A DNA stretch of 64,000 nucleotides from Bacteroidales bacterium (GCA_017449975.1 JAFSYK010000064.1:27060-91059); one strand, 5' to 3'; shown: positions 32,459-52,305, numbered from the stretch's first letter. A program made the numbers and translations. Notes: generated from the sequence alone by a model not told the origin.

Positions 32459-32513
32459 CAAAGGTACACCGATTGCCGTTGGCTTATGCCAATTATAGGC
32501 AATTATAGAAAAA
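32459..32513 (-). promoter_or_regulatory. promoter module: TTTTTCTATAATTGCCTATAAT, spacer, GGTGTACCTTTGCA
   Basis: Same architecture, and an identical 13-nt GGTGTACCTTTGC, as at 26878-26931. Confidence 0.55.
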
Positions 32514-32517
32514 AAAA

Positions 32518-33795: not shown

Positions 33796-33924
33796 TTGTA
33801 ATAGTTTTAGAACGAGAGTGTTTGAAAGCGCTTCCGGATTTTACTCAGTGCATTGAGTAAATTATGACCAATGGTGCAAATGTACGAATTATTATTCAAC
33901 TGAAACTGGCGAGAGGTTTGGGTA

Positions 33925-33955
33925 AAAATAGAAAGCCTCCCTTTTGGGGAGGCTT
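33925..33955 (-). terminator. terminator after tRNA-Glu
   Basis: aagcctccc / gggaggctt stem, followed on the minus strand by tctattttta. Confidence 0.65.
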
Positions 33956-34031
33956 GGTACCGCATATCAGAGTCGAACTGATGATCTTCTGCGTGAGAGG
34001 CAGATGTCCTGGACCACTAGACGAATGCGGC
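33955..34031 (-). tRNA. tRNA-Glu (anticodon CTC), CCA encoded
   Basis: Reverse complement is GCCGCATTCGTCTAGTGGTCCAGGACATCTGCCTCTCACGCAGAAGATCATCAGTTCGACTCTGATATGCGGTACCA. All four stems pair, and the D-arm TTCGTCTAG.GG.CCAGGACA is typical of tRNA-Glu. Confidence 0.85.
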
Positions 34032-37133: not shown

Positions 37134-37233
37134 TTTGTCTAATTTGTCTAATTAGTCTAATTAGTCTAATTAGTCTAATTGGTCTTATATATGGTAAAGG
37201 TTACTTTTTAGTTTTTAGTTTTTACTTTTTAGT
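37134..37233. repeat. GTCTAATTA word array followed by TTTTTAG words
   Basis: tttgtctaatttgtctaattagtctaattagtctaattagtctaattggtcttat ... ggttactttttagtttttagtttttactttttagttt. The last word runs into the truA stop region. Confidence 0.85.
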
Positions 37234-38055
37234 TTCCCAAGGGTATTCCACCTTTGTCAGAAAGAGTCCTTGGGCGGGCATGCTGACGCCGGCGGCACAA
37301 CGGTCTTTGCGCTCAACGATTTCGCGGAGTCCGTCGATGGAGAGTTTGCCGCGTCCCACATCGAGCAGGGTGCCGGTGACGCTGCGCACCATGTTGCGCA
37401 GGAATCGGTTGCTGCGGATGGTGAAAACCCACTCGTCTCCCACCTCATCCCAATGAGCTTCGCTCAGATGGCAGATGTTGGTCTTGACCTGTGTGTGCAG
37501 CTTGGCGAAACTGGTGAAGTCGTCGTACTCCATCAGCACCTGTGCCGCCTCGTTCATGCGGTCGATGTCGGGCTTGAAGAAGATGCGGCAGTAGAGTCCC
37601 TGGCGGAACGGCAGCCGTCGGTCGGAGACGTGGTACTGGTAGGTGCGTGCCACCGCGTCGAAACGGGCGTGGGCGTTGTCAGCCACAGAAAAGATACTGT
37701 ATATGGCGATGTCGCCTGGCAGATAGGAGTTCAGTTTGAAGGTGAGCAGGTCGGTGTCGAGGATATTTGTGGATTTAGAAGTAGGCTTAGTAGTCTTTTC
37801 TTCGTCACAACTCGACTCCCCCTCTATAGCCTCATTCTGCTGGCTGTTTTTGCTTGGATAGTCGAAGTGGGCGTAGAAGTCGCTGGCGTGGACACCCGTG
37901 TCCGTGCGTCCGCATCCCACCACCGCTGTCGGCTGCCGCAGCAGCGTCGTCAGTGCCTGTTCCAGCGTCAGCTGCACGGTGGGCAAGTTGGGCTGTGTCT
38001 GCCAGCCGCAATAGTTGCCGCCGTGATAAGCCAGATGGATGAAATAGCGCGACAT
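37222..38055 (-). CDS. truA: tRNA pseudouridine(38-40) synthase
   Basis: YHGGNYCGWQ, GCGRTDTGVHA catalytic Asp motif, RFLRNMVR. Contains a 30-aa AT-rich insert. Confidence 0.9.
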   Translation of the reverse strand: MSRYFIHLAYHGGNYCGWQTQPNLPTVQLTLEQALTTLLRQPTAVVGCGRTDTGVHASDFYAHFDYPSKNSQQNEAIEGESSCDEEKTTKPTSKSTNILDTDLLTFKLNSYLPGDIAIYSIFSVADNAHARFDAVARTYQYHVSDRRLPFRQGLYCRIFFKPDIDRMNEAAQVLMEYDDFTSFAKLHTQVKTNICHLSEAHWDEVGDEWVFTIRSNRFLRNMVRSVTGTLLDVGRGKLSIDGLREIVERKDRCAAGVSMPAQGLFLTKVEYPWETKK

Positions 38056-38186
38056 CAGGAAATAGCGAATTCGAAATAAATTGCAAAAATACGCATTTTT
38101 ATACTTCTATGCGATATCAAATCAGCGTAACATCGTTCTCTCAAAGATTCTTATCCGATAATGTGTTAGTATAAAAAATAAATGTG

Positions 38187-38480
38187 TATCTTTGCGCATC
38201 GTTTCGACGAGAGAAAGTCGAACAATGCGAAGAAAAGCATTTGTATTGGTCCGCTCTTTAAAGTTCGCCAAATTTTAACCAAAGGACAACGATACTGATG
38301 CCTTTTGCTTTGGTCTATGTATTGGTATCATTCCACTACATAACGAAGCATAGGATAAGGTTCAAGTTAGTTTTACTTTGGGAAGGCGTTTGGCGATGCC
38401 TAAAGAGCGTAGAACAAACAACTGAGTTCTATGCTTTTTTTATTTAGTATAACGCCGACCACCGGGAACTCGGGTCGGCA
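38187..38480 (+). ncRNA. promoter (-7 box TATCTTTG at 38187-38194) plus structured leader, copy B
   Basis: Homologous to the reverse complement of 31861..32180. Terminal helix GAAAAGCAT/ATGCTTTTT and 3' hairpin GCCGACC/GGTCGGC both carry compensatory differences relative to copy A. Confidence 0.5.
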
Positions 38481-38510
38481 TGAAATAAATAATACCGACG
38501 AAAGAATGGT

Positions 38511-38996
38511 ATGAAAAGAATCATTGTTTCACTAATAGGTGTGGTAATGCTCTTTATATCCTGTAAGAGTGATTTAGACGGAGCAATTCATTCTGCTGTC
38601 AGAGACGGTGTAATATCTTCTGAAGAATGGAATGAAATTGTAAGAGAAGCCACATCGAATCAAATATTTATTGACGAAAATGGGATTTTTTCTACCAGTT
38701 TGTTACAGGATTATATCAGGGAATATGTGGTAAATAACATGCGTGGAGTTAATGATATTCAGTTTTCCGAGGATATTGTTTTAACACCTGCTCCAGATTC
38801 ATCAAAATCAGTTGAATGTATATTCAAGTTTTTCCTTGAGCGTAGTGGAAGTATGATTCCCTATGATGAGAGACATACTTCTGGACAGTTTAAGAGCGCT
38901 ATTACGGGCTTATTGAATTCTGTGCCCAATAATACAATCCAGTTCATTACGGGGTGTACTCTCAAATCATCTGCAATGACAAAAGGTAGCAAGTGA
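38511..38996 (+). CDS. lipoprotein ending in a truncated vWA-like MIDAS segment (possible gene remnant)
   Basis: Lipobox MLFISCKSD. FKFFLERSGSMIPYD resembles the vWA beta1-DxSxS motif, but only about 55 aa follow it. Confidence 0.45.
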   Translation: MKRIIVSLIGVVMLFISCKSDLDGAIHSAVRDGVISSEEWNEIVREATSNQIFIDENGIFSTSLLQDYIREYVVNNMRGVNDIQFSEDIVLTPAPDSSKSVECIFKFFLERSGSMIPYDERHTSGQFKSAITGLLNSVPNNTIQFITGCTLKSSAMTKGSK

Positions 38997-39096
38997 ATAC
39001 CAATCTGGAGTGGAATCGTTAACTAAAGCGCGCTAGCATTTATGCTTAGTGTAAATGAATAAAAATTTTTAATATCAACTTATAAATTAATAAAAT

Positions 39097-39279
39097 ATGA
39101 TTGGAAGAATTATTGGGATAATTGTTAGCGTTGGTCTAATAATTGCCGGCCTCAGTGGCGAATTTGTGTTAAAGGGGACTGATAGCAGTATGGCATTAGT
39201 AATATTCGGTGTTGTATTACTAATATACGATGTATATAAATTATTGAAGGAAAAGAAGAAGGAAGAAGACGGGGACTGA
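39097..39279 (+). CDS. small two-TM membrane protein (60 aa)
   Basis: Two hydrophobic helices and a KKKEEDGD tail. Confidence 0.4.
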   Translation: MIGRIIGIIVSVGLIIAGLSGEFVLKGTDSSMALVIFGVVLLIYDVYKLLKEKKKEEDGD

Positions 39280-39356
39280 TAAGACTGATAAAGATGTATT
39301 TGTGTTTAGTTTTGTGCGGTTGCAAACTATTTTAGTTTTATTTTATTTATTCAACG

Positions 39357-42300
39357 ATGATTTCACTTATTGCTAATTCGGGTATTCAATTACACACGGT
39401 CCCCCTTCATATTGACTTTGAAGAAAGAGACCAAAACCTACTATTTCATGAGTGGTTTGATGATACACTGGTTCAATTCAATCTGGAACTTGCCACTCAG
39501 TTGAAGAACAATAAAGTTGCAATAAAAAGAAGTCAGCTTGAATCTATCGACTTTGTTGATCCCGTAAGTGGAGAACTAAAAGTTGAAGAAGGTGAGGTGT
39601 TGACGATTCCTAACTTGACTGTATTGCATCAGGGAGAAGTAAGGAGCAGTGATGAATTGTTTTACATGAATGGTGGCGACCGTCATAGCAAATTGCATAG
39701 ATTTGTCAATCAATGGATTATGGTTCCTTATTTTGAGTTGGATTCAATGGGCGAACTGAAGTTGGGACCATATAACTGGTGTCGATGCAAAGTTATTCCC
39801 AAAGAGTTGACTGATACATATTTGGATGGAGTCCTTCTGCTGTCATTTGATACTCATGCAACATATGGCGAGGCTGATCCGCATTCGGAGTGTCCTGTGT
39901 TCGAGAGTGATTCAGAGATGGACAAGACATTTTCATTTTGCACTCAACCGGCAATGACGCTTGATTTTTGTTCAGGTGATAACACTTGGGTCCGTGACGC
40001 TCTAATGGAATTAGTACACAACGTGAGCGATATGGATGACATTCGTACAGATATAGCCAGAGGTGAACATAAGTACGACTTCTTAGCTACCTATATATGG
40101 CTAATGGATTATATATCAAAGCATGCAGAAGTGCCAGAGGTACGACTCATACGTGATAGAGGCGTTAGCAACATTCCTGTAGAGATGATAATTGATATTG
40201 GCAATTCAAGAACTGCAGCAATACTTTATGAGGACGATTTTTCAAAGGTCGAACCGTTATCTTTACAGAATTTTGACAATCCTGTTGACTCAGATGGTCT
40301 GCTAAATAAAGCCGATGAGTCGTTTGATATGAGAGTGGCTTTTAAGAAGGTTGACTTTGGCTATAATATGATAGGTAGCCAGCAGTTCGTTTGGCCAAGT
40401 ATGGTACGATTAGGGTCGGAGGCCCGTCAGCTAACCTATCGTACTTCTAATCTGGCAGAAGGGGATGAGATGTTCTCGACATATTCTAGCCCCAAGAGAT
40501 ACCTTTGGGATAACAAACGGCGCAAAGAAGAGTGGAGGTGTGTGTGTGACGAAAATGGGGAAAACGAACGTCCAGAAATACCGGGTATAAGTAATTTCTT
40601 TGCTGATGATGGGAAATTGGATTCTGACGAGTTGGGATACGGATTCCACTATTCCAGAAAAACACTGATGACATTGGCATTTATTGAAATATTGGCACAA
40701 ACAAATGTGCAAATTAATAGTTATGAATACCGAAGCCATCGAGGAAAACCTAGTACTGGACGATTCTTAGACAAGGTGATTCTTACTTGTCCAACTGGCA
40801 TGTCAAAAGTGGAGCAGCAAGCCTTGCATGATTGTTTGGGGGATGCGTTATATGTCCTTGGTAAATTCTATCACAACTATGATGAATCATATGATCCAAA
40901 TGAAGTAGCAATAGAGCCAAATCTGAAGCGTGATAATGAAGATGGCCAATGGATCTATGATGAGGCGACGTGTTCCCAATTTGTGTTTTTGTATGGTTTG
41001 TTAACGGAAACCTATCAAAACTGTTCAGGCGAGTTGTTCAAGATATACGGAAGCAAGCGAGATGGTAAAGATAGTATTGTAATCGGCTCATTGGATATCG
41101 GAGCCGGAACTAGCGACATTATGGTATGCCGCTATGACTATAATGGAACTACAAATCCTTCGCAAATGAAACCCATTCCGCTGTTTTGGGATAGTTTCGA
41201 CATTGCAGGCGATGATATGTTGCAAGTCCTCATCTCCAACGTATTACTTCAAGGAAAAGATGGATTGCTCGAAAAGGAACTTATAAATAGGGGAGAAGAC
41301 GAAGAAAATGTGCGGGCAAAAATGTTTGATTTCTTTGGAAAAGACCAGATAACACATAGTTTTATTGACAAAAATCTCCGCCGCGACTTCAACCTCCAAG
41401 TACTGGTCCCAATAATGTATGAGTTCTTGAAACTCCATACTGACGGTGAAGGAGCAAGAGACGTGACATATTCCAACGTATTTTGTTCATCTGTTTCAAG
41501 TACAGCCGTATTGGAAAAATTCAAAAGCGTTTTTGGATTTGATTTGAATGAAATGGTATGGCATTATGACAGGGAAATTCTATCACGTCACATTGCTGCC
41601 AGTATGGATGAGAGGCTGTTGCAAAAAGTTGCTGGCGTTATGGCGGGATATGGTTGTGATTTGGTTTTATTGTCTGGCCGTCCCACGTCACTTGATCCAA
41701 TTCGAGAGGCGTTTCTTAGTCACGCCCCAGTACGTACTCCAGACCGTCTCATATGTTTAAACAAATATGAAATTGGTGACTGGTATCCATTTATCGACAA
41801 AGCCCATCGCCGAATAAATAACTCTAAAAGTGTTGTTCCTATTGGTGCAATGATTGGATACCTTGCATCTAATGCAGGTGGGATGAATGGTTTCTCATTG
41901 GACTTAAGCGAACTGTCACGCCTGTTAAAGCCAACGACAAATTATTTTCTAAAAAATGATGCAAAAGTAAAGGTTAATCCATCGTTTATGATTCCCGACA
42001 AACGAACAGGTGAGATGGAAGTTACATCTTTCCCAGTATATATAGGAAGTAGACAATACGATCTGGGAATATATCCTGTAAGACCATTTTACGTTCTCGA
42101 TGTCGACAGAGACAGTATTGCTGATAAGATTAAAACACACGATGCGATTTTGAATGAACATCAAATACAGCGTCAGACCGAACAAAAAGTCGCGAACTTA
42201 TTACAAGGCATTCCTTTTACCGTCACATTCTCAAGAGATGATAAAGAGGATTGTGAGACTTTGGAAATAGAGTCTATAAGGAATGCATCAAAAGAAGACC

Positions 42301-42398
42301 TGTCTACTGACGATTTCTCATTAAGTATACAGAGTCTCAATGATCCGGATTGTTATTGGCTGGATTCCGGAGTTTTCGAAATAAATCGTGCAAAATAA
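39357..42398 (+). CDS. SrfB-like Hsp70/actin-fold ATPase (1013 aa)
   Basis: Phosphate-1 IIDIGNSRTAAIL, phosphate-2 GSLDIGAGTSDIMV, adenosine motif LLSGRPTSLDPIREAF. ISLIANSGIQ and SSPKRYLWD resemble my recollection of the SrfB family (PF07520), and the size matches. Confidence 0.75.
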   Translation: MISLIANSGIQLHTVPLHIDFEERDQNLLFHEWFDDTLVQFNLELATQLKNNKVAIKRSQLESIDFVDPVSGELKVEEGEVLTIPNLTVLHQGEVRSSDELFYMNGGDRHSKLHRFVNQWIMVPYFELDSMGELKLGPYNWCRCKVIPKELTDTYLDGVLLLSFDTHATYGEADPHSECPVFESDSEMDKTFSFCTQPAMTLDFCSGDNTWVRDALMELVHNVSDMDDIRTDIARGEHKYDFLATYIWLMDYISKHAEVPEVRLIRDRGVSNIPVEMIIDIGNSRTAAILYEDDFSKVEPLSLQNFDNPVDSDGLLNKADESFDMRVAFKKVDFGYNMIGSQQFVWPSMVRLGSEARQLTYRTSNLAEGDEMFSTYSSPKRYLWDNKRRKEEWRCVCDENGENERPEIPGISNFFADDGKLDSDELGYGFHYSRKTLMTLAFIEILAQTNVQINSYEYRSHRGKPSTGRFLDKVILTCPTGMSKVEQQALHDCLGDALYVLGKFYHNYDESYDPNEVAIEPNLKRDNEDGQWIYDEATCSQFVFLYGLLTETYQNCSGELFKIYGSKRDGKDSIVIGSLDIGAGTSDIMVCRYDYNGTTNPSQMKPIPLFWDSFDIAGDDMLQVLISNVLLQGKDGLLEKELINRGEDEENVRAKMFDFFGKDQITHSFIDKNLRRDFNLQVLVPIMYEFLKLHTDGEGARDVTYSNVFCSSVSSTAVLEKFKSVFGFDLNEMVWHYDREILSRHIAASMDERLLQKVAGVMAGYGCDLVLLSGRPTSLDPIREAFLSHAPVRTPDRLICLNKYEIGDWYPFIDKAHRRINNSKSVVPIGAMIGYLASNAGGMNGFSLDLSELSRLLKPTTNYFLKNDAKVKVNPSFMIPDKRTGEMEVTSFPVYIGSRQYDLGIYPVRPFYVLDVDRDSIADKIKTHDAILNEHQIQRQTEQKVANLLQGIPFTVTFSRDDKEDCETLEIESIRNASKEDLSTDDFSLSIQSLNDPDCYWLDSGVFEINRAK

Positions 42399-42416
42399 TA
42401 ATCTAAAAACCGGACA

Positions 42417-45224
42417 ATGAAAGATAAGATTAAAAATACAATAAAAGCCATTAATGAGGCCCGAACTTGGGAGGTCAATGTCGACGAGAGTAAACGTTAC
42501 TCATGGAGAAAGAAATTGACAGACATTCAAAGGCAGCTGACCGATATAAGTTATGCACTCGAGGAAAATTGCTCTGTAGCAGCATTCGGTGAAAGCCAGA
42601 TGGGGAAATCGTACCTTGTGAGCGCCATGTTATCTGAGCCAGGCGTGCCTTTTTGTGTACAAGGTGGGGACAAGTCATACAATTTTATTGATGAAATTAA
42701 CCCAAGTGCTCCTAATAGTTCAGTGGAAGCAACTGGTGTTGTGACTCGTTTTACATCTGCACTACAATCTTCCGATAAAACACCAAAAGGTTGGTTAAGG
42801 GTACGTATGCTTACAATACCAGATATTGTATTAGTATTGGCAGAGGCTTATTACAATCAAGTAATCAGACATATCAGAAACGGGGACGACCTGAAGAGTG
42901 AAATAGAATCTCGAATTAAAAGCTGCCGTATCGCGACTAATGCAAATCCCTTGTTGACTGCGGTAGATATTGCCACCATTGAAGATTATTTACGGACCAC
43001 TTCAACAATAGGCGTTAATTGTGAGAATGTTCTCTCGACAAACCTTTTTCAATTTCTTTTACAAAATGTAGGCAATATCAGTAATGATGATACTCTTGCA
43101 CTTTTGAAACTAATATGGAATAACAATCTGGATATTAACCGATTGTTCGATGATTTGATGAAGTATTACAGGGAGTTGGGATTCCAATCATTCAACTATG
43201 TTGATTTCAAATCTGTCATTCGAAAACATGGAAGTCTTTTGGATGTCGCCAGACTCGATGAAATGTATAGTGACCCTGAGGCAGTAAGTGCGTTTTATGA
43301 GCCTCAAGCATCCGTCAAACTCAGTCCGGACGGTGTGGCTCACACGCTGCCCAAGTCTTTTCTAAGTGCGTTGACTGCCGAACTGTGCTTTGTTGTGGAT
43401 AAGCAAGGGACGAATGCAAATCGCTCATTTATGGACTATCTTGATATTCTCGATTTTCCAGGGCTTCGACCCAAACAAAGCAAAAATGAGGACGATCTTT
43501 CTGTTGGGAAAAGTATTGCAATCGTGTTTCGTCGTGGTAAAGTTACATATCTGTTTAATAAATACTCTCATACCAAACGTATCAGTTCTTTGCTGTTCTG
43601 CCACAACAATAATCAAAGTACTGAATGCACGATGGGACCTGTGTTATCTGAATGGGTGAGCACAAATGTTGGACGTAGTTTCAGTGATCGCAAGTCTTTT
43701 ATTGAAAATACGCAAGCTTCACCTTTGATGGTTGTTAGTACTTGGTTTAATCGAGACCTGGATTATAATAATGAGGCACGTGATGCCGATTTAGGAGAGC
43801 GATGGAATAGGCGTTTTAAAATAGTGCTTTCTAAAGAGGTTTTGCAGTCAATAGACAAACCAGACCACTGGTTTAACAGTTGGACTAGTAGCGGGACTCC
43901 CTTTAAATGCATTTTTATGTTGCGTGACTTTAAATTTTCCAAAGGAATTTTTAGAGGCTATAACCCAGATTTAAATCAACAGGAAACAGAAGCTATAGAG
44001 AATGATAGATTTCCTGACTATCTTGCACAACTGAAAAGATCTTTTACTACAAATAAATTTGTAAGGAACCACTTCGAGAATCCAGAGAGACATTGGGATG
44101 CAGCAGCCTCGCCTGCATGCGATGGCACAATAACAATTATTGAACATCTTAACAGCCTTGCTCCCAGGGTGAACGGGGCAAGATTGCAAAAATTCAATAA
44201 CGACTATAATCTGCTTGTGGAGGAATTGCGTTCTCTTTTATTGAGCGAATATCACGACGATGATCCTGCCGAGCAGACTCGTAAAGCAAAAAAAGAAGCG
44301 GGAAGAGTCATTGTTGGTATAGATCGTCAGTGTGGTAATAACCCTTATTTTTGGAGTAGAATGATGGAGTCGATGATGATTCCAGAAAGAATTGTCAGAG
44401 AAGCAGTGTTTGGTCACATCAAAGGTAATGAGTTAAGTAAGCCATTGTCAAAACCTGAAAGTGAGATATTCATGGCAGCAGGATTGGACACCGAAGCCTC
44501 TTACGACGATAACCTATCAAGATTGTGTGACTATTTGGGGGCTGATGATAAGAAGGAGTGTGAAGAAATATTAAAAGACATAGACCCGGATATAGACATT
44601 GACAAACTTCTCGAGCAAAACAAAATGGTGGAAAGCACTGCCGAACAACTATTGATATCTATAGAGAAAATTTGGCAGACTGACTTTTTAAGCGTGAAAG
44701 TGGCAGGAGGCAGTGGTATGCCAGATGTAAATACAATTGTTGCAAAGCTTGTTGCATTATATCGCGAGTTGGATGTACACAAAGTATTGGTTCGAGAGAT
44801 TCAACATTTGATGGACTCAATCATTCAAAACAAGCAGGTTGGTATTGTCGCAAGTTGGCTGACGATGTCACTCAACAAATTCGTGGGTGAGTTTGGATAT
44901 GGCTATATTGATGAATCAACTATGCGCAGTATTGCCAAGAAAAACGAGGACTTCAAGTTGAATATTGATTTTGATATGTTGAATTATACAGATCAAGGTT
45001 ATGGAATAGACTTGTTAAAACAGATGGATGAGGTTCAACATAGTTTGGAACAAGAAGGGTTTACGGCAAAAGTACGAGAACAACAGAAACTGTTGCCACA
45101 GTATCGTAGTCGTTGGCAGTGGCAGAACCGGATGAGAGCGGCATTTGCTGTTGTCAGTGGTTTGAGAGATTATAACATAGAAGCCAACAATGAGATAAAA
45201 CGAATTATTGACTCCATAAATTAG
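42417..45224 (+). CDS. SrfC-like dynamin-type P-loop GTPase (935 aa)
   Basis: G1 AAFGESQMGKSYLVS (compare dynamin GxxSxGKS), EATGVVTRF (G2 Thr), LDILDFPGL (DxPG G3). Size and position after the SrfB-like gene match srfC. Confidence 0.65.
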   Translation: MKDKIKNTIKAINEARTWEVNVDESKRYSWRKKLTDIQRQLTDISYALEENCSVAAFGESQMGKSYLVSAMLSEPGVPFCVQGGDKSYNFIDEINPSAPNSSVEATGVVTRFTSALQSSDKTPKGWLRVRMLTIPDIVLVLAEAYYNQVIRHIRNGDDLKSEIESRIKSCRIATNANPLLTAVDIATIEDYLRTTSTIGVNCENVLSTNLFQFLLQNVGNISNDDTLALLKLIWNNNLDINRLFDDLMKYYRELGFQSFNYVDFKSVIRKHGSLLDVARLDEMYSDPEAVSAFYEPQASVKLSPDGVAHTLPKSFLSALTAELCFVVDKQGTNANRSFMDYLDILDFPGLRPKQSKNEDDLSVGKSIAIVFRRGKVTYLFNKYSHTKRISSLLFCHNNNQSTECTMGPVLSEWVSTNVGRSFSDRKSFIENTQASPLMVVSTWFNRDLDYNNEARDADLGERWNRRFKIVLSKEVLQSIDKPDHWFNSWTSSGTPFKCIFMLRDFKFSKGIFRGYNPDLNQQETEAIENDRFPDYLAQLKRSFTTNKFVRNHFENPERHWDAAASPACDGTITIIEHLNSLAPRVNGARLQKFNNDYNLLVEELRSLLLSEYHDDDPAEQTRKAKKEAGRVIVGIDRQCGNNPYFWSRMMESMMIPERIVREAVFGHIKGNELSKPLSKPESEIFMAAGLDTEASYDDNLSRLCDYLGADDKKECEEILKDIDPDIDIDKLLEQNKMVESTAEQLLISIEKIWQTDFLSVKVAGGSGMPDVNTIVAKLVALYRELDVHKVLVREIQHLMDSIIQNKQVGIVASWLTMSLNKFVGEFGYGYIDESTMRSIAKKNEDFKLNIDFDMLNYTDQGYGIDLLKQMDEVQHSLEQEGFTAKVREQQKLLPQYRSRWQWQNRMRAAFAVVSGLRDYNIEANNEIKRIIDSIN

Positions 45225-45231
45225 CTCTATT

Positions 45232-46941
45232 ATGCCTACGGTAAAAAATAAAAGAAAGATTTGCGAGACAAGTCTGTCTGACTTTAGTATAGAACAGGTT
45301 TCAGGAGTCCCGTTCTATAGCCGTTATCGTGAGATTGAAAGCGTATTCAAAAAACTTGTTCCGGATGTGGACTTTTCCATTAGCTTTGCGCAGCCTTATG
45401 AGAATAAGGCTAAGCGTGTAATAGAATGGTTCTACATCCCGGGGAAGGAATCTCCATCTCGACTATCTGAATTGGCCGATTCCGATACGGATAGTTATTC
45501 AGATGCGAATTCAAAGAGAGCAAAAATTGTTGAAGCCATTAACAAGGCAATTAATAACGCAGGTGATGTGGAACGTAAATTCCTCAATGCGGCGTTATCG
45601 GGCATTGGGTCGGTCGAGTCGGACAACACAACATATTTTTACGATGGCCAAGTCCTGTTTGGCGTTTGGGGTATGCGGGCAAAATCCGGTCGTAAAATAG
45701 AAGATGTAATACGTGAAGATGTATTGGATCATCGAGTTTTTACTATCCGCTACAAGTTGGATGGTGAGGGTAGTCTTTCTTTCTCGTCCGTTGGAAGAAA
45801 GTTTGGCCATAAACTCACCCCATCCGATGTTCCACAAGTTACCCCTTCACATGGGTGGTCTTTTGTAAGATGGGAACCTGAAATCCCGCAGGGATGGTCA
45901 GTTGAAAATGATAAGATTTTTACAGCAGTCTGTGAGTTTGATAATAATTTACCTGATGGAAGTGGAGTTGATAATAATCCCACGCCTCCGGACGGACCAA
46001 TAAAAGACGAGCAACCTGGTTCATCCGGTGCAGATGAGGAAGACAAATTCCATGTCCAGTTTATCAGCGAGAATCATGGAACAATATCTGGGTGTGCGGA
46101 TTATTGGAAGATGGCTGGAGAGTGTGTGAATAGTAATGAAGTTCCGTTAGTGATGCCGGAAGAGGGATATGAGTTTCTTGGATGGGATTGCGAACCGGAT
46201 GGGTATGCAGTAAATGCAGATACTGTTTTTACGGCAAGGATTGGAAAAATAAATTGTAAAGTACGTTTTCTAGAAGGCAATCATGGCAAGTTAAAAGGGA
46301 AGACTGAATATGACAAAAAGTATTTGGAACGAATACAATCAAATGAAATTCCTAATGTGGAAGCGGATGATGGTTGTCGATTCGTCGGCTGGGACAAGGA
46401 ACCCAATGGTTTCGAAGTAAAGGATGACACCACATTCGTTGCACAATATCAAGAAAAAGAAACTGATTCATGGTGGCATAGATTTTGGGGACTAGGGTCA
46501 GGCTGTTTAAGTTGGTTGCTAGCTCTGTTATTATTGGGATTGATTGGACTCTTTCTTTGGTACTTGTTTGGAAACCACAATCTGAACTTCTGTGGGTGCA
46601 ACTGCGAGGAAGACATATCCTCCATTTATCCAGAAACTCCCAAAGAATTTGATTGTAATTCCACACAAAAAAGTGGTGATGACGCTGGATATCTTGGATA
46701 CATAGATATGCACCAAGATTCGGGTACTTTCCATTTTCATTATGATACTTACTCTCGACGTGATAGTATTGTTATTTATGACGGTAAAGGAATAAGTGGA
46801 AGGGTCATATTCCGTTATGGCGGAGGAACGGAATCCATTAAAGATGCAAATGTCGAGTTTCATAACCGTTATATAACAGTCAAGGTGCGGGCAATAGATG
46901 ATGGAACCTGTTGGGATTTTAGGGTTGATTGTCCGGATTAA
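45232..46941 (+). CDS. single-pass membrane protein with three InlB-B (Listeria-Bacteroides) repeats and a Cys-rich C-terminal domain
   Basis: Repeats GWSFVRWEP...DKIFTAVC, GYEFLGWDCEPDGYAVNADTVFTA and GCRFVGWDKEPNGFEVKDDTTFVA. TM segment LSWLLALLLLGLIGLFLWYLF, then CGCNC. Confidence 0.6.
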   Translation: MPTVKNKRKICETSLSDFSIEQVSGVPFYSRYREIESVFKKLVPDVDFSISFAQPYENKAKRVIEWFYIPGKESPSRLSELADSDTDSYSDANSKRAKIVEAINKAINNAGDVERKFLNAALSGIGSVESDNTTYFYDGQVLFGVWGMRAKSGRKIEDVIREDVLDHRVFTIRYKLDGEGSLSFSSVGRKFGHKLTPSDVPQVTPSHGWSFVRWEPEIPQGWSVENDKIFTAVCEFDNNLPDGSGVDNNPTPPDGPIKDEQPGSSGADEEDKFHVQFISENHGTISGCADYWKMAGECVNSNEVPLVMPEEGYEFLGWDCEPDGYAVNADTVFTARIGKINCKVRFLEGNHGKLKGKTEYDKKYLERIQSNEIPNVEADDGCRFVGWDKEPNGFEVKDDTTFVAQYQEKETDSWWHRFWGLGSGCLSWLLALLLLGLIGLFLWYLFGNHNLNFCGCNCEEDISSIYPETPKEFDCNSTQKSGDDAGYLGYIDMHQDSGTFHFHYDTYSRRDSIVIYDGKGISGRVIFRYGGGTESIKDANVEFHNRYITVKVRAIDDGTCWDFRVDCPD

Positions 46942-46963
46942 TTAAAATTGGTTATTAGAAGAA

Positions 46964-47872
46964 ATGGATAGTAATAATCGAAATAAAAATAGAATTTTCA
47001 GTTTGCTGCTAAAAATACTGGCAGCAATCGCGATGCTGCTACTAATAATTTGCTTTGTAAAAACTTGTCAGAACTGTAAGCAGCAACAGATACGCACCCT
47101 TGTTATCCAGCGTACGGGTTACCTGCCAGAGAATGAACCGTGGGATCTCATTCCCAAAGAGAATCCACCATATCGTGATGAGTATCTTGACAGTCTCCCC
47201 GACTCAGTATCTTTAGAACACCTTTTCCCTCCCATTGGTGACCAGGGAGTTAAGGGGACGTGTGTGGCGTGGGCTGTCGGTTATAATCTTGTAACAGCGC
47301 TTTTTGCGCAAGATAATAAATGGACAATTGACGAGTTGTCCGATCCACAAAATCAGATTTCACCGGCAGACCTGTGGCTTGGTATACCTGCTGGCAAAAA
47401 ACAAAAACCGTGTGGCTTCACTGATTTTTGGAGTGCATTTGACGTGCTGATTTCAAAAGGCGCAGCAAGTATGAAACGTGTGCCATATTCCAATATGGGT
47501 AGTACATGCAAGGGTGGTTTCATCGGCGATACGAATAATAGAATTGCTGGTTTCAATCGGATTGTTTCTGACGGTGAATTGCCAAGTGTGAAACAACTCA
47601 AGGGATATCTTGCAGACACAATACCTTTAGCCTTTTCTGCTATGGTGGGTTTTGTATTTTCAAGCTGGAGTGGTGATGGGGTTTTCAACTCGCCTGATAA
47701 TGGAATGACAAGTGGACATGCCATGGTGATTTCTGGATATGACGATTCAAAGCACGCATTTCGTATTAGAAACTCGTGGGGTACTGCATGGGGTGATGAA
47801 GGAAGCGCTTGGGTGGACTACGATTTCTTTATTAATAGTTTTTGCAAGGAAGTTTTCAAGGCCAATAATTAA
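46964..47872 (+). CDS. membrane-anchored papain-like (C1 family) cysteine peptidase
   Basis: N-terminal TM segment, GDQGVKGTCVAWAVG (Gln/Cys), SGHAMVISGYDD (His), RIRNSWGTAWGDEG (Asn/Trp). Confidence 0.75.
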   Translation: MDSNNRNKNRIFSLLLKILAAIAMLLLIICFVKTCQNCKQQQIRTLVIQRTGYLPENEPWDLIPKENPPYRDEYLDSLPDSVSLEHLFPPIGDQGVKGTCVAWAVGYNLVTALFAQDNKWTIDELSDPQNQISPADLWLGIPAGKKQKPCGFTDFWSAFDVLISKGAASMKRVPYSNMGSTCKGGFIGDTNNRIAGFNRIVSDGELPSVKQLKGYLADTIPLAFSAMVGFVFSSWSGDGVFNSPDNGMTSGHAMVISGYDDSKHAFRIRNSWGTAWGDEGSAWVDYDFFINSFCKEVFKANN

Positions 47873-47883
47873 TACAATTAAAT

Positions 47884-48720
47884 ATGAGAAAATTCAATCT
47901 AAACTGGGGTGTAGTGTTGGCAGCAGTAGTGTTGCTGGGGTATTCCTACATCTCTTTCCTTGGTATGCTTTACAAGGTTGACGGGGTTTTATGGAAGGCG
48001 GTATTATTCGCCATTGGTGTGATAGCCGCGGTGTCAATTTGTGTGTATGTAATGGTTAGTGCGAAGGTTACCAAGAGTAAAGAAGCTGGAGTTATTGGGC
48101 AGATAGTCTTTGGCATAATTATTCTTGCGACATTTCTTGTTTCAGGAAGCCCATTTACCAGTTTTCTTAAGGTGGCAGGTAGTAAAAACGCCATCGAGAC
48201 TGGAATTAACAATGTGAAAACCTCTGCGTATAGCCTTGATGAGGAATACAATAAGTACGCTTTGGAGCGAGTTCAAAAGTATGGAAATACTTTTGCGGTA
48301 GCAGATGGTGATCTGAAAGTTCAGAGTCTTAAGAGAAGACTTAGTCCCGATTCGATTAATACAGTGCAACAACTGCGTCGCGATTGGGTGGCGCAAATAG
48401 GTGATATGAGTATTTGGAATGTGAAATTGCCTCAGAATCTGAAATATATGCAGCAATGCGTGGGAAATTGGACGGAAAATTACACCTTGATTTCAGATAA
48501 AATATATGAAAGCGAACATGCCTCCGCATTTTCATACAATGAATTTGACACATCATTAAATTTATTAATGGATAGTTTCAAAAAAGCTGGTTATTCTTTT
48601 TGGGCTGTACTGGTGGCTATCTTCTCTGCTTTTGTGATGATGATTCCATATTGGTTGGCAGTTCCCACTTCAACCAGAAAAACTCATGGGGTGACTTATG
48701 TTAAACAAGTAAATCGTTAG
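47884..48720 (+). CDS. membrane protein (3 N-terminal TM segments, soluble loop, C-terminal TM segment)
   Basis: Hydrophobicity pattern only. Confidence 0.6.
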   Translation: MRKFNLNWGVVLAAVVLLGYSYISFLGMLYKVDGVLWKAVLFAIGVIAAVSICVYVMVSAKVTKSKEAGVIGQIVFGIIILATFLVSGSPFTSFLKVAGSKNAIETGINNVKTSAYSLDEEYNKYALERVQKYGNTFAVADGDLKVQSLKRRLSPDSINTVQQLRRDWVAQIGDMSIWNVKLPQNLKYMQQCVGNWTENYTLISDKIYESEHASAFSYNEFDTSLNLLMDSFKKAGYSFWAVLVAIFSAFVMMIPYWLAVPTSTRKTHGVTYVKQVNR

Positions 48721-48723
48721 TCA

Positions 48724-50424
48724 ATGGATAAGAATAAAATACTGGAGGCCTGGAAGTCTCTTCCTATCAATAATTTGATGAATTTCATCCTAAAAGGTGA
48801 GATTACATTGGGGGAACTTGAAAAAAGCATATCCGGGGATAAAGATACAAAAAGCCGAGATAGAATCGACGAGTTGAAGAAGTTGCTTCAAAGCAAAGAA
48901 AAAGAAATGCGAGAAAAGGCAATGGATGAGGATACTGTGGCGGCATATCGGTCTTATCTTGATTTTTTTGGTGATAATGGGTCAAGCTCGGAGGAGTTTT
49001 ATCAACTTCTGCAACAGAAAGACACGGAAATGTGGCGACAGGTGAAAAGTAATCCGACGGTGGATGGAATTAAGACTTACCAAGATACTTTTCCGAGCGG
49101 GCTTTTTATCAAAGAGTGTTTTGAATTGGCGGAGGATTTGCCATGGTATCAAACAAAGGCGCAGAATACTATTGCTGCATACGAAATATATAAAAAAAAA
49201 TACCCAGGCAAACATGTTGAAGATATTAATCGCGCGATAGAACAAATTGTTGATGAACAGGATTGGGATACGGCGTGTAAAAATGGCACGACACAAGCCT
49301 ACCAAGACTATCTTAGTAAGCATCCAGATGGTTTGCACAATAGTGAGGCATTAGAACGGATTAATAATCGATCTGGACGTGATTTATTTCTCGACGAGCT
49401 GAGAAAGGATGTTAATAAGTTCCCAGTAAAAGGAGATCAGTGGGAAGAAGGTATTATAGAAAAAATTGAAAACAATGTCGCATCATGGGACGACTTAAGA
49501 TCTATCTTTACGGCTCAGCAAATCGATGCAATACGTAATTATCAGGCACCAAATCAGTTGCCGTTAGTGCAAGATTTTGAAAAATTACCTCGGGGTTATA
49601 CGGAAGTATATTTTTGGGGAACGCGAGGAACGGGTAAAACATGTGCAATCGGTGCGACAATTGGATACCTTCGCAATGTTCGAAAAAGCATTAATCCATT
49701 GACTTGTCCGGGCGAGCGATATCTTCATCAATTAGAGAATTTGTTCCGTAATAATGGCAATGTTTGCTCGCTTCCTCCAGGAACTGTTAATGGAAACCTT
49801 CCTGCGATGGCTTTCAGTTTTAAGGACAAAAGGAACGCTGATCACAAGACTATGTTAATTGATGTGGCAGGAGAGGTTTTTGCAGGTATCTTCAAGGCAG
49901 AACATGGCGTTCCTATTGCACCAGATGAAGAAAATGCCATTAACCATCTAAAACAATGTTTAAATGATAAATACAATAACAAAATTCATTTTTTCATTGT
50001 CGAGTATGGCAATGATGATATGTTATATATAGATGGTTATGGTGAAGTGACGAAGTCTCAGGTTATGCAGAGTTTAGCTGGATATTTTGCAAAAGAGAAA
50101 TTGTTTACACGGTCTTCTGTTTCTATGAATATTTTGGTTACAAAATGTGACAAGATAAAGGATGGAGATAGAATGGAACGTGTGCAGGAATATATTGAGA
50201 ATTCACATTGGGGAGCAGTTGTAAATGGCATAAACGACATATCAGAACATGCACGTTGCGGTGGAACCAATGTAATGGGTTTTTCAATTGGAAATGTTTT
50301 TGCGCAAGATTTGTGTATCTTCCGACCGGATGATGCTGAGGGCATTGTCTCTGAGATTGAAGAACGTACACATGGGGTTAAAGACACATGGTTTAGTCGT
50401 TTAATTGATTTTTTTAGAAACTAG
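48724..50424 (+). CDS. GTPase with four N-terminal YxxYLxxxP repeats
   Basis: Repeats AAYRSYLDFFGDNG, IKTYQDTFPSG, IAAYEIYKKKYPGKH and TQAYQDYLSKHPDG. G1 FWGTRGTGKT, G3 LIDVAGE, G4 LVTKCDK. Confidence 0.65.
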   Translation: MDKNKILEAWKSLPINNLMNFILKGEITLGELEKSISGDKDTKSRDRIDELKKLLQSKEKEMREKAMDEDTVAAYRSYLDFFGDNGSSSEEFYQLLQQKDTEMWRQVKSNPTVDGIKTYQDTFPSGLFIKECFELAEDLPWYQTKAQNTIAAYEIYKKKYPGKHVEDINRAIEQIVDEQDWDTACKNGTTQAYQDYLSKHPDGLHNSEALERINNRSGRDLFLDELRKDVNKFPVKGDQWEEGIIEKIENNVASWDDLRSIFTAQQIDAIRNYQAPNQLPLVQDFEKLPRGYTEVYFWGTRGTGKTCAIGATIGYLRNVRKSINPLTCPGERYLHQLENLFRNNGNVCSLPPGTVNGNLPAMAFSFKDKRNADHKTMLIDVAGEVFAGIFKAEHGVPIAPDEENAINHLKQCLNDKYNNKIHFFIVEYGNDDMLYIDGYGEVTKSQVMQSLAGYFAKEKLFTRSSVSMNILVTKCDKIKDGDRMERVQEYIENSHWGAVVNGINDISEHARCGGTNVMGFSIGNVFAQDLCIFRPDDAEGIVSEIEERTHGVKDTWFSRLIDFFRN

Positions 50425-50430
50425 TTGATT

Positions 50431-52305
50431 ATGAATAAATTTTCTTTGTCTGTTGCTTTTAAAGGGCAACTATATAAAAATGATGCATTGTCTACCAATT
50501 ATGTGTTTCCGCAGACCAACACAGAATGGGCTTTGCTGTTGGGTTCGGATCCGAGGAAATTGATAGCAGACCTTAATATCAATGGGGATTACTGTTGCTA
50601 TACCATCAAAATAGTAGAAAGTGGAATAGTGTACGCTTATCGTAGAGTTCGGCCTGGAAGAAGTGGTAGTAATTGTGCGATGGTGATGCTTTTGGCTGGT
50701 GGCCCTGCCCGTGATGGGAAAAAATTGACTGAAAAAATGCATGAGCTATTGACTTATGCGATGTCCCTATCGTCTTCCGAACAGATTGATAAAGATTTTT
50801 TGGGTGAGAAACTATCCAGTTGCGACGATTTGTTCAATTGGCAAAGACAACCCAATTTTAAAGAGAATCCGGAGAAAGTTGTCTTAAATGAGGCATTCAG
50901 AGAATACAAGACCGAGGAGGATCTTTTTAGAATATTGGAAAATCCATATCAACCAGCTTATAATAATTTTAGTTGTATACATATTATTCCGGCAGAGGCT
51001 AATACAATCCCAGCTAGCAATAGCAATATTCAACAAATAACAATCGGTTTAGAACCTATTTATTTCTTTGCTTTTCCTCAAGGCGTTGAAGAGGAATCCG
51101 GTAAGAAATACATAGGCAAAAGTGAGGTTTTTAAACTTATTTATAAACGTAATGGATATAAGCCTTTTTCGACAGATTATTTGAGGGCGGCAGCTGATTC
51201 TCGATACTATAGTGTGGACAATGACACAATTAAGGTTAAAACGGCTGAAGATGCAAGAATTAAATTCAGCAGATCGTTGGTTTTTTATGTTTCAGATGAG
51301 AGGGATAATAATATTGACAAGTTCCTTTTTCGAATTAAAGAGATAAGCAATAATAGATGGATGCAGTGGTTGGTTGGTGGCAGAACGTATGAGTGGTTGC
51401 CAGGGAAGGATGGCAAGATGGAAGTTCCCCTTGAGGACGGTCAATATGAGTATCATATAAAAGTAGAGGGGTATGGAGAAAAGAAGGGCCAGATTGATAC
51501 ACTAAACAATACCAATAATATAATTAACGTTAGGTTAAAAGCAGAGAGTGACGAGCAAGAAATGTATCTTGTGCCGGCCTTTTATAAGCGGGACAAGAAT
51601 TCGAATGCAGGAATTGGAAAGGTTACGGTCGGCTACTCAAAGAATAATGTTTTCTTCAAGAAGTATGGTAAGTATTTTGGAAAGCATGTTTCGAAATTGC
51701 CTGTTTTTTATGTGATGCATAAGAATCCCAAGCGAATTATGTATTTTACGTGTATACTTTCTTTGTTAATTGGCTTTGGAATGGGGCTAATAATTAAATC
51801 ACAATCAAAAATAGAGGAAAATAATGCTGCACCCGTAGATACGACTCGCAATGATAGTGTGAAAGTTACAGAAGTTTCAGAAGTAATTGTTGGAGTTGAC
51901 GCTTTGGAGTCGGAGGATGAAAAATATTTATCTGAAAATAATGTTTGGGAGAAGTCAAAATTGAAATCTCAGAAGTATAAGGATTTCTTTGATGTTTTTA
52001 CATACTTGGCTGCTTCAGATTGGAGTAATAATGAATGTAATGTGATTAAATTAGATACGCTTAATGAAATCGATAGCTGCTATTCTCATATTAACAATCA
52101 AATATGGATATCAATCCGGAAAAAAATTTTTGAAAAGGATAGGAATAGCTGCATGGAGATAAGAGATAATATAATAAAACAGATGAAGGAAAATAGGAAT
52201 TTTGTTGACATAAGTAAACTGGAGTCGCCCAATGGTACTTCTTCAAATACACAGCGCTCTGCAGAGAGTATTAAAAAATTACCAGAGGGAACTAAACAAC
52301 GTTAA
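50431..52305 (+). CDS. large single-pass membrane protein (about 440 aa N-terminal, TM segment, about 160 aa C-terminal)
   Basis: ATG 6 nt after the upstream stop. TM segment IMYFTCILSLLIGFGMGLII. No recognisable motif. Confidence 0.6.
   Translation: MNKFSLSVAFKGQLYKNDALSTNYVFPQTNTEWALLLGSDPRKLIADLNINGDYCCYTIKIVESGIVYAYRRVRPGRSGSNCAMVMLLAGGPARDGKKLTEKMHELLTYAMSLSSSEQIDKDFLGEKLSSCDDLFNWQRQPNFKENPEKVVLNEAFREYKTEEDLFRILENPYQPAYNNFSCIHIIPAEANTIPASNSNIQQITIGLEPIYFFAFPQGVEEESGKKYIGKSEVFKLIYKRNGYKPFSTDYLRAAADSRYYSVDNDTIKVKTAEDARIKFSRSLVFYVSDERDNNIDKFLFRIKEISNNRWMQWLVGGRTYEWLPGKDGKMEVPLEDGQYEYHIKVEGYGEKKGQIDTLNNTNNIINVRLKAESDEQEMYLVPAFYKRDKNSNAGIGKVTVGYSKNNVFFKKYGKYFGKHVSKLPVFYVMHKNPKRIMYFTCILSLLIGFGMGLIIKSQSKIEENNAAPVDTTRNDSVKVTEVSEVIVGVDALESEDEKYLSENNVWEKSKLKSQKYKDFFDVFTYLAASDWSNNECNVIKLDTLNEIDSCYSHINNQIWISIRKKIFEKDRNSCMEIRDNIIKQMKENRNFVDISKLESPNGTSSNTQRSAESIKKLPEGTKQR

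Follow-up and report, generated by a model that had tools for sequence, protein, structure and literature searches.

The srf locus of Bacteroidota: a mobile cassette of predicted cytoplasmic NTPases and periplasm-facing membrane proteins

The cassette and its genes

This work concerns a srfB-srfC gene pair, and the genes that follow it, in a stretch of 64,000 nucleotides from a Bacteroidales bacterium (GCA_017449975.1 JAFSYK010000064.1:27060-91059). We call the whole stretch the window, and all coordinates count from its first letter. A reading made from the sequence alone, without database searches (the sequence-only reading), had placed at 39357-45224 an open reading frame (ORF) of 1013 aa and a second one 18 nt downstream, and had described them as a SrfB-like/SrfC-like pair without a recognisable SrfA. 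Both ORFs are present as claimed, at 39357-42398 (1013 aa) and 42417-45224 (935 aa). They lie near the head of a low-GC island and open a run of genes, all on the plus strand from srfB through 54071, with gaps of 0-54 nt. Taken together, our data make it very likely that this run is the Bacteroidota form of the srf locus, built of three cytoplasmic NTPases and of membrane proteins that face the periplasm.

Relatives were collected by a scan of one genome per species with a SrfB alignment, which gave at least 587 confirmed loci. The synteny counts below refer to the best-scoring 80 of these loci, which are not a random sample; their ORFs were called de novo and then clustered (c0-c4), and single loci are cited by number (L003 and so on). 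Transmembrane (TM) topology is everywhere the prediction of a hydropathy scan. The nine genes that are kept in the subclade of the window (39357-54071) are as follows.

39357-42398, plus strand: srfB, 1013 aa; PF07520, E 1.5e-168; Hsp70/actin-fold model; cluster c0, 79 loci
42417-45224, plus strand: srfC, 935 aa; PF10139 (Virul_Fac), E 1.5e-82; starts 18 nt after the srfB stop; cluster c1, 73 loci
45232-46941, plus strand: apparent diverged srfA homologue (p569), 569 aa, predicted bitopic; cluster c2, directly after srfC in 70 loci
46964-47872, plus strand: papain-family (C1) cysteine protease, 302 aa; PF00112, E 2.3e-11; predicted signal-anchor TM segment at aa 14-32
47884-48720, plus strand: polytopic membrane protein, 278 aa; 4 predicted TM segments (6-24, 40-58, 68-86, 242-260) and a central soluble region of ~150 aa; cluster c4, 64 loci
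48724-50424, plus strand: cytoplasmic tetratricopeptide-repeat (TPR) and GTPase protein, 566 aa; cluster c3, kept in 66 loci
50425-52305, plus strand: second predicted bitopic membrane protein, 626 aa (ATG 50431 gives 624 aa)
52360-53223, plus strand: N-terminally anchored accessory protein, 287 aa; same-position homologues in L092 (40% identity), L093 (56%) and L032
53250-54071, plus strand: signal/anchor protein, 273 aa; same-position homologues in L092 (47%) and L093 (43%)

Single-TM or 4-TM predictions were obtained for five of the products; SrfB, SrfC and the c3 protein, the three NTPases, have no predicted TM segment.

SrfB and SrfC

The family searches left little doubt about either protein. 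SrfB scored 563 bits against PF07520 (cut-off 27.1), with residues 2-1007 lying on profile positions 12-991 of 992, and SrfC scored 279 bits against PF10139 (cut-off 28.1) over residues 28-834. The three nucleotide motifs that the sequence-only reading had seen in SrfB, DIGNSRT (aa 280-286), DIGAGTSD (aa 580-587) and LLSGRPTS (aa 771-778), fall on invariant columns of a 16-sequence alignment of 45-100% identity, as the phosphate-1 (D280-T286), phosphate-2 (D580-D587) and adenosine (L772-P776) motifs. Its first ~270 aa form a beta-rich domain; the nucleotide-binding domain that comes next contains insertions, and a beta domain closes the chain at the C-terminus.

Sequence searches of the Protein Data Bank (PDB) with the SrfB and SrfC profiles gave nothing meaningful, so the fold claims rest on AlphaFold2 (AF2) models. 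For the SrfB model (pLDDT 77, pTM 0.76) Foldseek found 218 PDB matches at E<=1e-3, headed by DnaK, BiP and Hsp110 (DnaK 7ko2_B: E 6.7e-14, probability 1.0). As in Hsp70/DnaK, the modelled nucleotide-binding domain carries all three ASKHA motifs and is followed by a beta domain, and the model aligns to full-length DnaK, BiP and Hsp110. However, identity is only 9-14%, SrfB adds the 270-aa N-terminal beta domain and large insertions, and no counterpart of the DnaJ/GrpE partners of DnaK is encoded near it. On this model SrfB is an ATPase of the Hsp70/actin-type (ASKHA) fold, as the sequence-only reading had proposed.

In SrfC, the P-loop GESQMGKS (aa 58-65) and the DFPG motif (aa 346-349) were both borne out: G58, S60, Q61, G63, K64, S65, T106, D346, P348 and G349 are invariant in 42 sequences, including the proteobacterial ones of Klebsiella and Cereibacter. 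The AF2 model (pLDDT 85, pTM 0.69) has a dynamin-like G domain and a long helical stalk, and its top 23 Foldseek matches all belong to the dynamin superfamily: bacterial dynamin-like protein (BDLP), dynamin, Mgm1, LeoA, Mx/MxB, mitofusin, Fzo1 and Drp1. The best, BDLP 2j69, reached E 5.1e-5 at probability 1.0; the structural TM-scores were low (0.19-0.42), as expected because the stalk is long and flexible. The expected G4 position reads TWFNRD here and TKFNxD in the family. No canonical [NT]KxD is therefore evident and GTP specificity should not be assumed, so that of the dynamin-like GTPase of the earlier reading the fold stands and the GTPase is not established. We conclude that SrfC is, on its model, a P-loop NTPase with a dynamin-like fold, for which the label GTPase is an assumption.

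Among the bacterial dynamin-like proteins (BDLP, DynA, LeoA/LeoBC, Eleos), the predicted G domain and stalk of SrfC come nearest to BDLP, dynamin and LeoA, and a membrane-associated context is common to both groups. In contrast to them, SrfC has no sequence-level match to the dynamin families or to the Eleos models of PADLOC, lacks a paddle or TM region as well as an evident canonical TKxD, and is always paired with SrfB and a SrfA-like anchor.

A diverged SrfA homologue downstream of srfC

The claim that a recognisable SrfA is missing did not hold. The gene directly after srfC encodes p569, in which a cytoplasmic SrfA-N-like domain (aa 1-170) is followed by three InlB-B-type repeats (~aa 170-414; PF18998), a TM segment (aa 424-442) and a periplasmic domain of ~125 aa with six cysteines, as far as topology can be predicted. 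The hidden Markov model (HMM) of the c2 family matched the annotated 'SrfA family protein' of a Klebsiella plasmid in the N-domain and at the TM segment, and 17 of 40 c2 members matched the NCBIfam model SrfA_fam (NF040486; best E 2.8e-17). p569 itself had no NCBIfam match at E<=1 and did not reach SrfA_fam. An HMM of the N-terminal 230 residues of c2, from which the window sequence had been left out, recovered p569 at E 6e-77 and proteobacterial SrfA N-domains at E 2e-7 to 4e-3 (Z=1e5). When the two N-domain profiles were compared with hhalign, they aligned over 141 columns with 97.1% probability (E 7.4e-11), and the shared motifs W[FY]xxxPG and VxxxWG[MF] fell in register. A single hydropathy peak was found in each protein, at aa 424-442 in p569 and aa 208-226 in the Klebsiella SrfA, which predicts a bitopic topology for both. 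This agrees with the published SrfA, which has a cytoplasmic N-domain, one TM segment and a periplasmic C-domain (bioRxiv 10.64898/2026.09.18.752743).

The published C-terminal domain is lipocalin-like, with FLNGxW and four cysteines (bioRxiv 10.64898/2026.09.18.752743). The C-terminal 124 aa of p569 showed no similarity to it (phmmer, filters off), which rules out a SrfA-C lipocalin; no known family accounts for the six-cysteine domain, which was seen again only in L039 and, weakly, in L061. In L061 and L081 the SrfA-N domain is a separate small ORF straight after srfC. Judged by sequence similarity, p569 is a diverged SrfA homologue; we do not call it a strict member of the SrfA family, because it falls short of SrfA_fam and has no lipocalin at its C-terminus. 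The gene had been overlooked earlier because only the slot upstream of srfB was considered, and that slot is conserved in no relative. Here, and in the 70 loci, the order is B-C-A rather than A-B-C.

Conserved gene order in Bacteroidota

The same-strand order srfB-srfC-c2-c4-c3 was found in 64-73 of the 80 loci, with absences mostly at contig ends, and srfB and srfC form an adjacent pair in every complete locus. In the window the spacing from srfC to the c3 gene is 0-22 nt. In one subclade a DUF805 protein is encoded between c4 and c3. Except for a few metagenome-assembled genomes (MAGs) titled as other taxa, all 80 loci are from Bacteroidota, among them Bacteroidales, Chitinophagaceae, Saprospiraceae, Crocinitomicaceae, Algoriphagus and Fluviicola; at the level of orders, the conserved block is carried by Bacteroidales, Chitinophagales, Cytophagales and Flavobacteriales. 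The statement that order and sizes mirror srfB-srfC was right for the two families and for their adjacency (73 loci), but the operon has the order B-C-A and at least five genes, nine in the subclade of the window.

Upstream of srfB nothing is conserved: relatives at 77-85% identity have wholly different upstream genes. As side observations, a ~244-aa NusG/UpxY-like gene lies directly 5' of srfB in ~9 loci (including L018, L033, L046, L047, L049, L053, L066 and L079) and a ~400-aa tyrosine integrase in ~6 loci; both are absent in the window. By analogy with Bacteroides polysaccharide loci, the NusG-like gene suggests a dedicated antitermination of the long operon.

The c4 protein, encoded between the SrfA-like gene and the c3 gene in the 64 loci that have it, has no consistent Pfam family. 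The c3 protein carries a C-terminal TRAFAC-type GTPase domain, with G1 GTRGTGKT (aa 299-306), G3 DVAGE (aa 380-384, with a Walker-B Glu) and G4 TKCD (aa 473-476); G299, G304, K305, G383, E384, K474 and D476 are invariant. Its N-terminal part has BamD/YfiO-like TPR-type repeats, with weak PDB matches to BamD and CpoB. Members of the c3 family reached the Pfam families PF19993 (10 of 37, best 3.7e-6), PF19975 (5 of 37, best 7.6e-8) and YfiO (4 of 37). That c3 might be a paralogue of SrfC was ruled out by hhalign (probability 0.9%). An exhaustive profile search gave 677 clusters at 50% identity (E<=1e-30), and in the named protein collection every match that carried a source name, the window copy included, was called 'hypothetical protein'.

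A sixth gene, at most 80 nt after c3, was present in ~24 of 59 loci; its product is always bitopic and belongs to one of several unrelated families. In the window it is the second bitopic protein, which consists of a cytoplasmic N-domain of ~437 aa, a TM segment (438-456) and, outside the membrane, ~170 C-terminal residues. No Pfam family matched it, and jackhmmer tied it to L003, L009, L011, L032 and L057. The SrfA-N domain was sought in this protein as well; no match was found and the idea was rejected. For the 287-aa protein that comes next, a gene of similar size was called at the same position in L086 and L088. The 273-aa protein is the last that is kept with the cassette in the subclade, and the loci diverge after it.

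Proteases of the cassette

In 33 of 40 c2 proteins the TM segment is followed by an S8 (subtilisin) domain, with His and Ser motifs present. p569 lacks this domain, and the next gene encodes the separate, TM-anchored C1 protease, in which the set Q94/C100/H252/N270 is intact and conserved in 5 orthologues. A C1 gene occupies the same position in L034, L039, L086, L088, L092 and L093. L034 and L039 belong to a different branch of the SrfB tree: their C1 proteases are 52% identical to that of the window, and the corresponding figures are 35% for SrfB, 25% for SrfC and 25% for the SrfA-like protein. Because C1 is 52% identical between cassettes in which SrfB is only 35% identical, we conclude that the protease module moved between cassettes, and the sequence comparison fits an exchange of a protease plus short-SrfA module between distant cassettes. 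These two relatives (C1 at 19496-20473 in L034 and 15967-16896 in L039) carry a tandem duplication of the short SrfA-like gene, with products of 530 and 600 aa. The predicted periplasmic protease thus appears to be a swappable module: in most relatives it is an S8 domain within the SrfA-like protein, and here a C1 enzyme with its own gene.

Comparison with proteobacterial srfABC

Proteobacterial srfABC operons (Salmonella STM1593-1595; Xenorhabdus, Klebsiella and Cereibacter plasmid copies) encode a homologous SrfB, with 25-29% identity over 70-89% of the query, and a SrfC with 19-20% identity to that of the window and the same invariant P-loop and DxPG. The N-domain of SrfA is likewise homologous by the profile comparison above, SrfA being predicted bitopic in both phyla, and downstream of srfC both encode additional bitopic membrane proteins and other conserved genes. 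In contrast, srfA stands upstream in proteobacteria, in the order A-B-C, and the periplasmic end of SrfA is a lipocalin there but an S8 protease in Bacteroidota, or the six-cysteine domain with a separate C1 in the window.

The genes around the three also differ. The operon of the Klebsiella and Cereibacter plasmids comprises SrfA-N-domain paralogues, SrfA, SrfB, SrfC, a 340-aa single-TM protein, a vWA protein, an ABC ATPase, a permease and SUMF1, a layout that agrees with published work (bioRxiv 10.64898/2026.09.18.752743). Its 340-aa protein, vWA protein, Lol-like ABC pair and SUMF1 are absent here, and Pfam and NCBIfam gave no match of the latter three kinds among the genes of the island; in their place the Bacteroidota cassette has the 4-TM protein, the second bitopic protein and the TPR and DO-like GTPase protein. 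HMMs of c3 and c4 found nothing in the Klebsiella and Cereibacter loci, and the gene sets after srfC are unrelated.

The Xenorhabdus paper reported the operon only in gamma-, alpha- and beta-proteobacteria (PMC6950479). Automatic annotation already labels SrfB and SrfC in Bacteroidota, so the family assignment is not new, and in the NCBI record of the source MAG SrfC and the 566-aa protein are both named 'hypothetical protein'. In a search that lacked most subscription journals, no paper turned up on the Bacteroidota cassette, on its permuted, protease-fused SrfA or on the GTPase that goes with it.

A mobile cassette on a low-GC island

The cassette sits on an island of ~18.5 kb, which also holds non-conserved head and tail genes. 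The island and the features discussed in this section are:

38056-56600, no strand: low-GC island, GC ~0.34-0.43 against a host background of ~0.55, from the composition profile and 200-nt GC steps
39307-39314, plus strand: TAGTTTTG, match to the Bacteroidota -7 promoter motif TAnnTTTG, 43 nt 5' of the srfB ATG; weak evidence
38511-38996: lipoprotein-like ORF, 161 aa, truncated
39097-39279: two-TM peptide, 60 aa
54173-56301, plus strand: three terminal island genes (160, 190 and 296 aa), low GC; two of the three with an N-terminal signal or anchor

On the left the island begins abruptly where truA (37222-38055) stops, and on the right it runs to ~56.6 kb; its GC of 0.38 against 0.55 counts as a sign of mobility. 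No att-like flanking direct or inverted repeats of at least 12 nt were found at the island borders. The window contains 54 matches to TAnnTTTG, compared with 40.6 expected, so that the motif alone is not significant and only its position before srfB is suggestive. Scans of the window for sigma-70 promoters and terminators gave results not above shuffled expectation, and Rfam found nothing in it but two tRNAs.

Copies of the cassette move and recombine. Integrases, an insertion sequence and NusG/UpxY-like genes flank various copies. In the related host L093 (YebC 91%, SulP 78% and truA 72% identical) a divergent cassette lies on the other side of the YebC-SulP-truA block, the side of the second low-GC stretch described below. 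The Alloprevotella MAG BRZ_LB__bin49 has two cassettes (L006 and L068) of separate subfamilies, whose SrfB proteins are 51% and 32% identical to that of the window. In L086 (10001-15943) SrfB is 78% identical to ours but SrfC 53%, and SrfC and the downstream genes are at 39-57%; this contrast indicates recombination within the cassette, with a breakpoint near the srfB/srfC junction. The cassette is thus a horizontally mobile, co-directional operon on a low-GC island. On plasmid pSP2_1 of Runella sp. SP2 (L084, 1-23156) it comes directly after a BREX-1 cluster (pglZ, brxL) and restriction genes, and in L092 (15611-21698) a NucA-type endonuclease and an AbiEi/AbiEii pair lie downstream of it. 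These links to defence genes are anecdotal, and a survey of 144 flanking proteins gave no general pattern.

The proteins of the cassette diverge at different rates. Compared with L088, SrfB is 85%, SrfC 86%, c3 78% and c4 69% identical, and the SrfA-like protein 58%, C1 57% and the second bitopic protein 38%. Within each of the two bitopic proteins identity falls from 57-71% over the N-terminal 170-220 aa to 21-48% over the remainder. For the NTPases non-synonymous divergence (dN) against L088 is 0.09-0.15 and synonymous sites are saturated, for which reason no dN/dS figure is given; dN this low with saturated synonymous divergence (dS) shows purifying selection, and the genes are not in decay.

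The upstream ORFs are of another kind. The sequence-only reading had reported a truncated vWA-like lipoprotein and a 60-aa membrane peptide where srfA might lie. The peptide is present, with two predicted TM segments, and the lipoprotein is truncated indeed; the vWA assignment was not supported, as neither the fragment nor its full-length relative matched a vWA HMM. This relative is a 513-aa lipoprotein of Prevotella sp. oral taxon 299, of which the 161-aa ORF matches only the N-terminal third (32% identity). Next to it in Prevotella (L090, 3884-7430) come genes for a 147-aa multi-TM protein and for one of 537 aa with a weak tubulin/FtsZ-family match (PF13809, E 8.5e-5), and its neighbourhood is without srf genes. 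The fragment may, by this similarity, be a remnant of a different system with a tubulin-like protein.

At the other end, the three terminal genes had no family matches, and in L092 and L093 they are not retained alongside the cassette. The last of them is followed by a terminator-like hairpin (56334-56355). At the right border a 537-aa protein with AAA-ATPase_like (PF09820) and PD-(D/E)XK (PF08011) matches is encoded at 56630-58243 on the plus strand with host-like GC, and a 325-aa ORF on the opposite strand (56606-57583) that overlaps it is probably spurious. A second low-GC stretch (~24000-33800, GC 0.36-0.44) abuts tRNA-Glu at 33955-34031 on the minus strand. It holds an AAA ATPase (27754-29187), an AAA_21/AbiEii-type ATPase (25975-26880), a Sel1-repeat protein (25237-25965) and a 425-aa ORF with no Pfam match (32518-33795), and looks like another acquired element. 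ARAGORN called a 93-nt 'tRNA-???' with a two-base anticodon in it (27126-27218, minus strand). Rfam, at its gathering threshold, did not confirm this call, which is probably either spurious or a degenerate tRNA-like sequence.

Discussion

Our results describe an srf operon in which SrfB, SrfC and a third NTPase are kept with a diverged SrfA and other membrane proteins. How these parts would work together can be proposed by analogy. The SrfA-like N-domain would tether SrfB, and then SrfC, to the cytoplasmic membrane on its inner side. For the proteobacterial proteins, SrfA, SrfB and SrfC co-immunoprecipitate (PMC6950479), and the cytoplasmic N-domain of the bitopic SrfA has been modelled as a platform for SrfB and then SrfC (bioRxiv 10.64898/2026.09.18.752743). 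The fast-evolving periplasmic parts of the two bitopic proteins would form a surface for sensing or for contact with a target. The ATP/GTP-driven conformational work of SrfB and SrfC would be coupled across the membrane to the periplasmic protease, with the DO-like GTPase and its 4-TM partner acting as the gate, and local remodelling of the membrane would be a possible further output. We regard this coupling as evenly poised between right and wrong. The nucleotide-driven remodelling module that the sequence-only reading suggested is plausible, and amounts to a two-gene description of an operon of at least five genes with membrane, protease and GTPase parts.

As to what the machine is for, a mobile and modular cassette, fast-evolving exposed parts and a conserved NTPase core lead us to favour a role in conflict or in surveillance of the envelope, against phage or other envelope attackers, over that of a secreted toxin. 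This we put forward tentatively, as possible rather than probable; for the explanation as a whole, srf identity, mechanism and conflict role together, our confidence falls slightly short of an even balance. The Walker-B Glu of c3, typical of DO-GTPases from NTP-dependent conflict systems, is counted in its favour.

Several results weigh against a conflict role. None of the published phenotypes is one of defence: in Salmonella the operon is under FlhDC control and srf mutants swarm less (PMC4219756), in Xenorhabdus stockiae SrfABC gives lysate cytotoxicity (PMC6950479), and in Serratia a srfB knock-down leads to phage resistance without loss of motility (PMC11797060). Among the sampled cassettes L032 and L038 have neither S8 nor C1, so that a protease is not strictly required. 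The c3 protein of the window has no Pfam match itself, and its likeness to DO-GTPases is remote. When ten island proteins (from the 161-aa ORF to the 287-aa protein) were compared with PADLOC-DB v2, no significant match was found; the 144 flanking proteins of the 80 loci gave a handful of scattered PADLOC matches, and an association with defence islands is not shown. Finally, srfB occurs in only 1 of 2.9 million viral contigs, which does not support a phage origin either.

The chief rival is a physiological envelope machine that senses no enemy and serves vesicle formation with protease loading, membrane repair or surface remodelling, with SrfC as a vesicle dynamin and SrfB as a chaperone of membrane clients. 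The resemblance of the SrfC model to BDLP and LeoA speaks for it. LeoA-type dynamins are linked to vesicle-associated toxin release. Vesicle export has also been proposed for SrfABC (bioRxiv 10.64898/2026.09.18.752743), the swarming defect and FlhDC control in Salmonella suit such a machine (PMC4219756), and the altered phage susceptibility of the Serratia knock-down, with motility retained, fits a change of the surface (PMC11797060); the ten island proteins compared, moreover, match no defence model. Against this rival stand the sporadic, low-GC, mobile nature of a cassette whose position differs even between related hosts, the presence of two divergent copies in some genomes, the much faster divergence of the periplasmic parts than of the NTPases, and the swapping of effector-like modules between cassettes; housekeeping machinery of the envelope does not have such traits. 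We judge such an envelope machine unlikely.

Two classes of known conflict systems offer points of comparison for the conflict reading. The DO-GTPase families were defined, with their Walker-B Glu, in NTP-dependent conflict systems (PMC7159879, Kaur, Burroughs, Iyer, Aravind 2020). These DO-GTPase (GAP1) systems likewise have a TRAFAC GTPase with this residue, to whose families PF19993 and PF19975 some c3 members, though not that of the window, are weakly matched, and they share with the srf cassette the TM proteins alongside, an Hsp70-family protein in some systems, variable effector-like parts and an occurrence in Bacteroidota. They differ in having a GTPase pair, where the cassette has one GTPase of this type, and a DnaK-like Hsp70 with GrpE, where the cassette has SrfB; SrfC and SrfA are absent from them, and the paper mentions neither Srf proteins nor dynamins (PMC7159879). 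Their GAP1, GASH and FNIII domains were found neither in the genes of the window nor in 21 sixth-gene products of relatives. IetAS-type defence also combines an NTPase with a subtilisin-family protease, and 17 of 40 SrfA-like relatives have an S8 domain that scores against the NCBIfam model of the IteS anti-phage peptidase (best E 9.3e-11). This match is a similarity of S8 domains only, and mycosin and other S8 models score higher; the copy in the window has no S8, and the S8 domains of the relatives come after the TM segment and are thus predicted to be periplasmic.

Carried further, the conflict reading would make the cassette an undescribed class of envelope-embedded immune or conflict system. 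Its bitopic periplasmic domains would detect an attack (phage adsorption or injection, a bacteriocin, a hit by a type VI secretion system), its NTPases would transduce the signal, and the protease would be unleashed, the membrane remodelled, or both; by extension, proteobacterial SrfABC, too, would be such a machine rather than a toxin. We consider this extended form somewhat unlikely.

A tripartite SrfABC toxin, in which an exported complex kills eukaryotic or other cells and the Bacteroidota version would bring export helpers, appears improbable. Cytotoxicity, complex formation and cell entry have been published for the Xenorhabdus proteins, with toxicity data from E. coli lysates and transfection (PMC6950479), and the family names read 'virulence factor'. 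In contrast, neither a signal peptide nor a TM segment is predicted for SrfB, SrfC and the third GTPase, their nucleotide-binding sites are conserved in the way typical of enzymes that work in the cytoplasm, the SrfA-like protein is predicted to be an integral bitopic membrane protein, and the conserved partners are membrane proteins and a GTPase with no secretion system. The carriers, too, are mostly rumen or gut commensals and free-living Bacteroidota.

Still less probable is a self-contained SrfB-SrfC remodelling module that dispensed with SrfA and has unrelated neighbours. The constant adjacency of the pair and the failure of p569 to reach SrfA_fam would be expected of it, but a SrfA-like gene homologous to SrfA-N follows srfC in 70 loci, c4 and c3 come next in 64 and 66 loci, and a gene spacing of 0-22 nt in the window ties them to srfC. 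A decaying remnant, suggested by the loss of S8, by a SrfA-like protein of 569 aa compared with a family median of 854 aa and by the truncated upstream lipoprotein, is hardly credible, as all nine ORFs and their catalytic and nucleotide-binding residues are intact, the short-SrfA and C1 layout recurs in at least 6 other contigs at 35-87% identity, dN is far below a saturated dS, and the truncated gene lies outside the conserved cassette.

For ~20 years SrfA, SrfB and SrfC have gone under the name of virulence factors or of a tripartite toxin with no mechanism established, and in the literature searched their distribution was described only for proteobacteria; the locus is in fact very common in Bacteroidota (at least 587 species-level genomes). 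In these bacteria SrfA appears as an exchangeable adaptor in the membrane that in most cases ends in a protease on the periplasmic side, and the conserved unit adds a GTPase family of hundreds of 50%-identity clusters that is 'hypothetical protein' in public records where it is named. The question thereby shifts from the action of a toxin on host cells to a membrane-anchored Hsp70/dynamin/GTPase machine at the bacterial envelope. Many of the carriers are gut or rumen Bacteroidales, and a role in resistance to phage or competitors, if true, would bear on the ecology of the microbiome.

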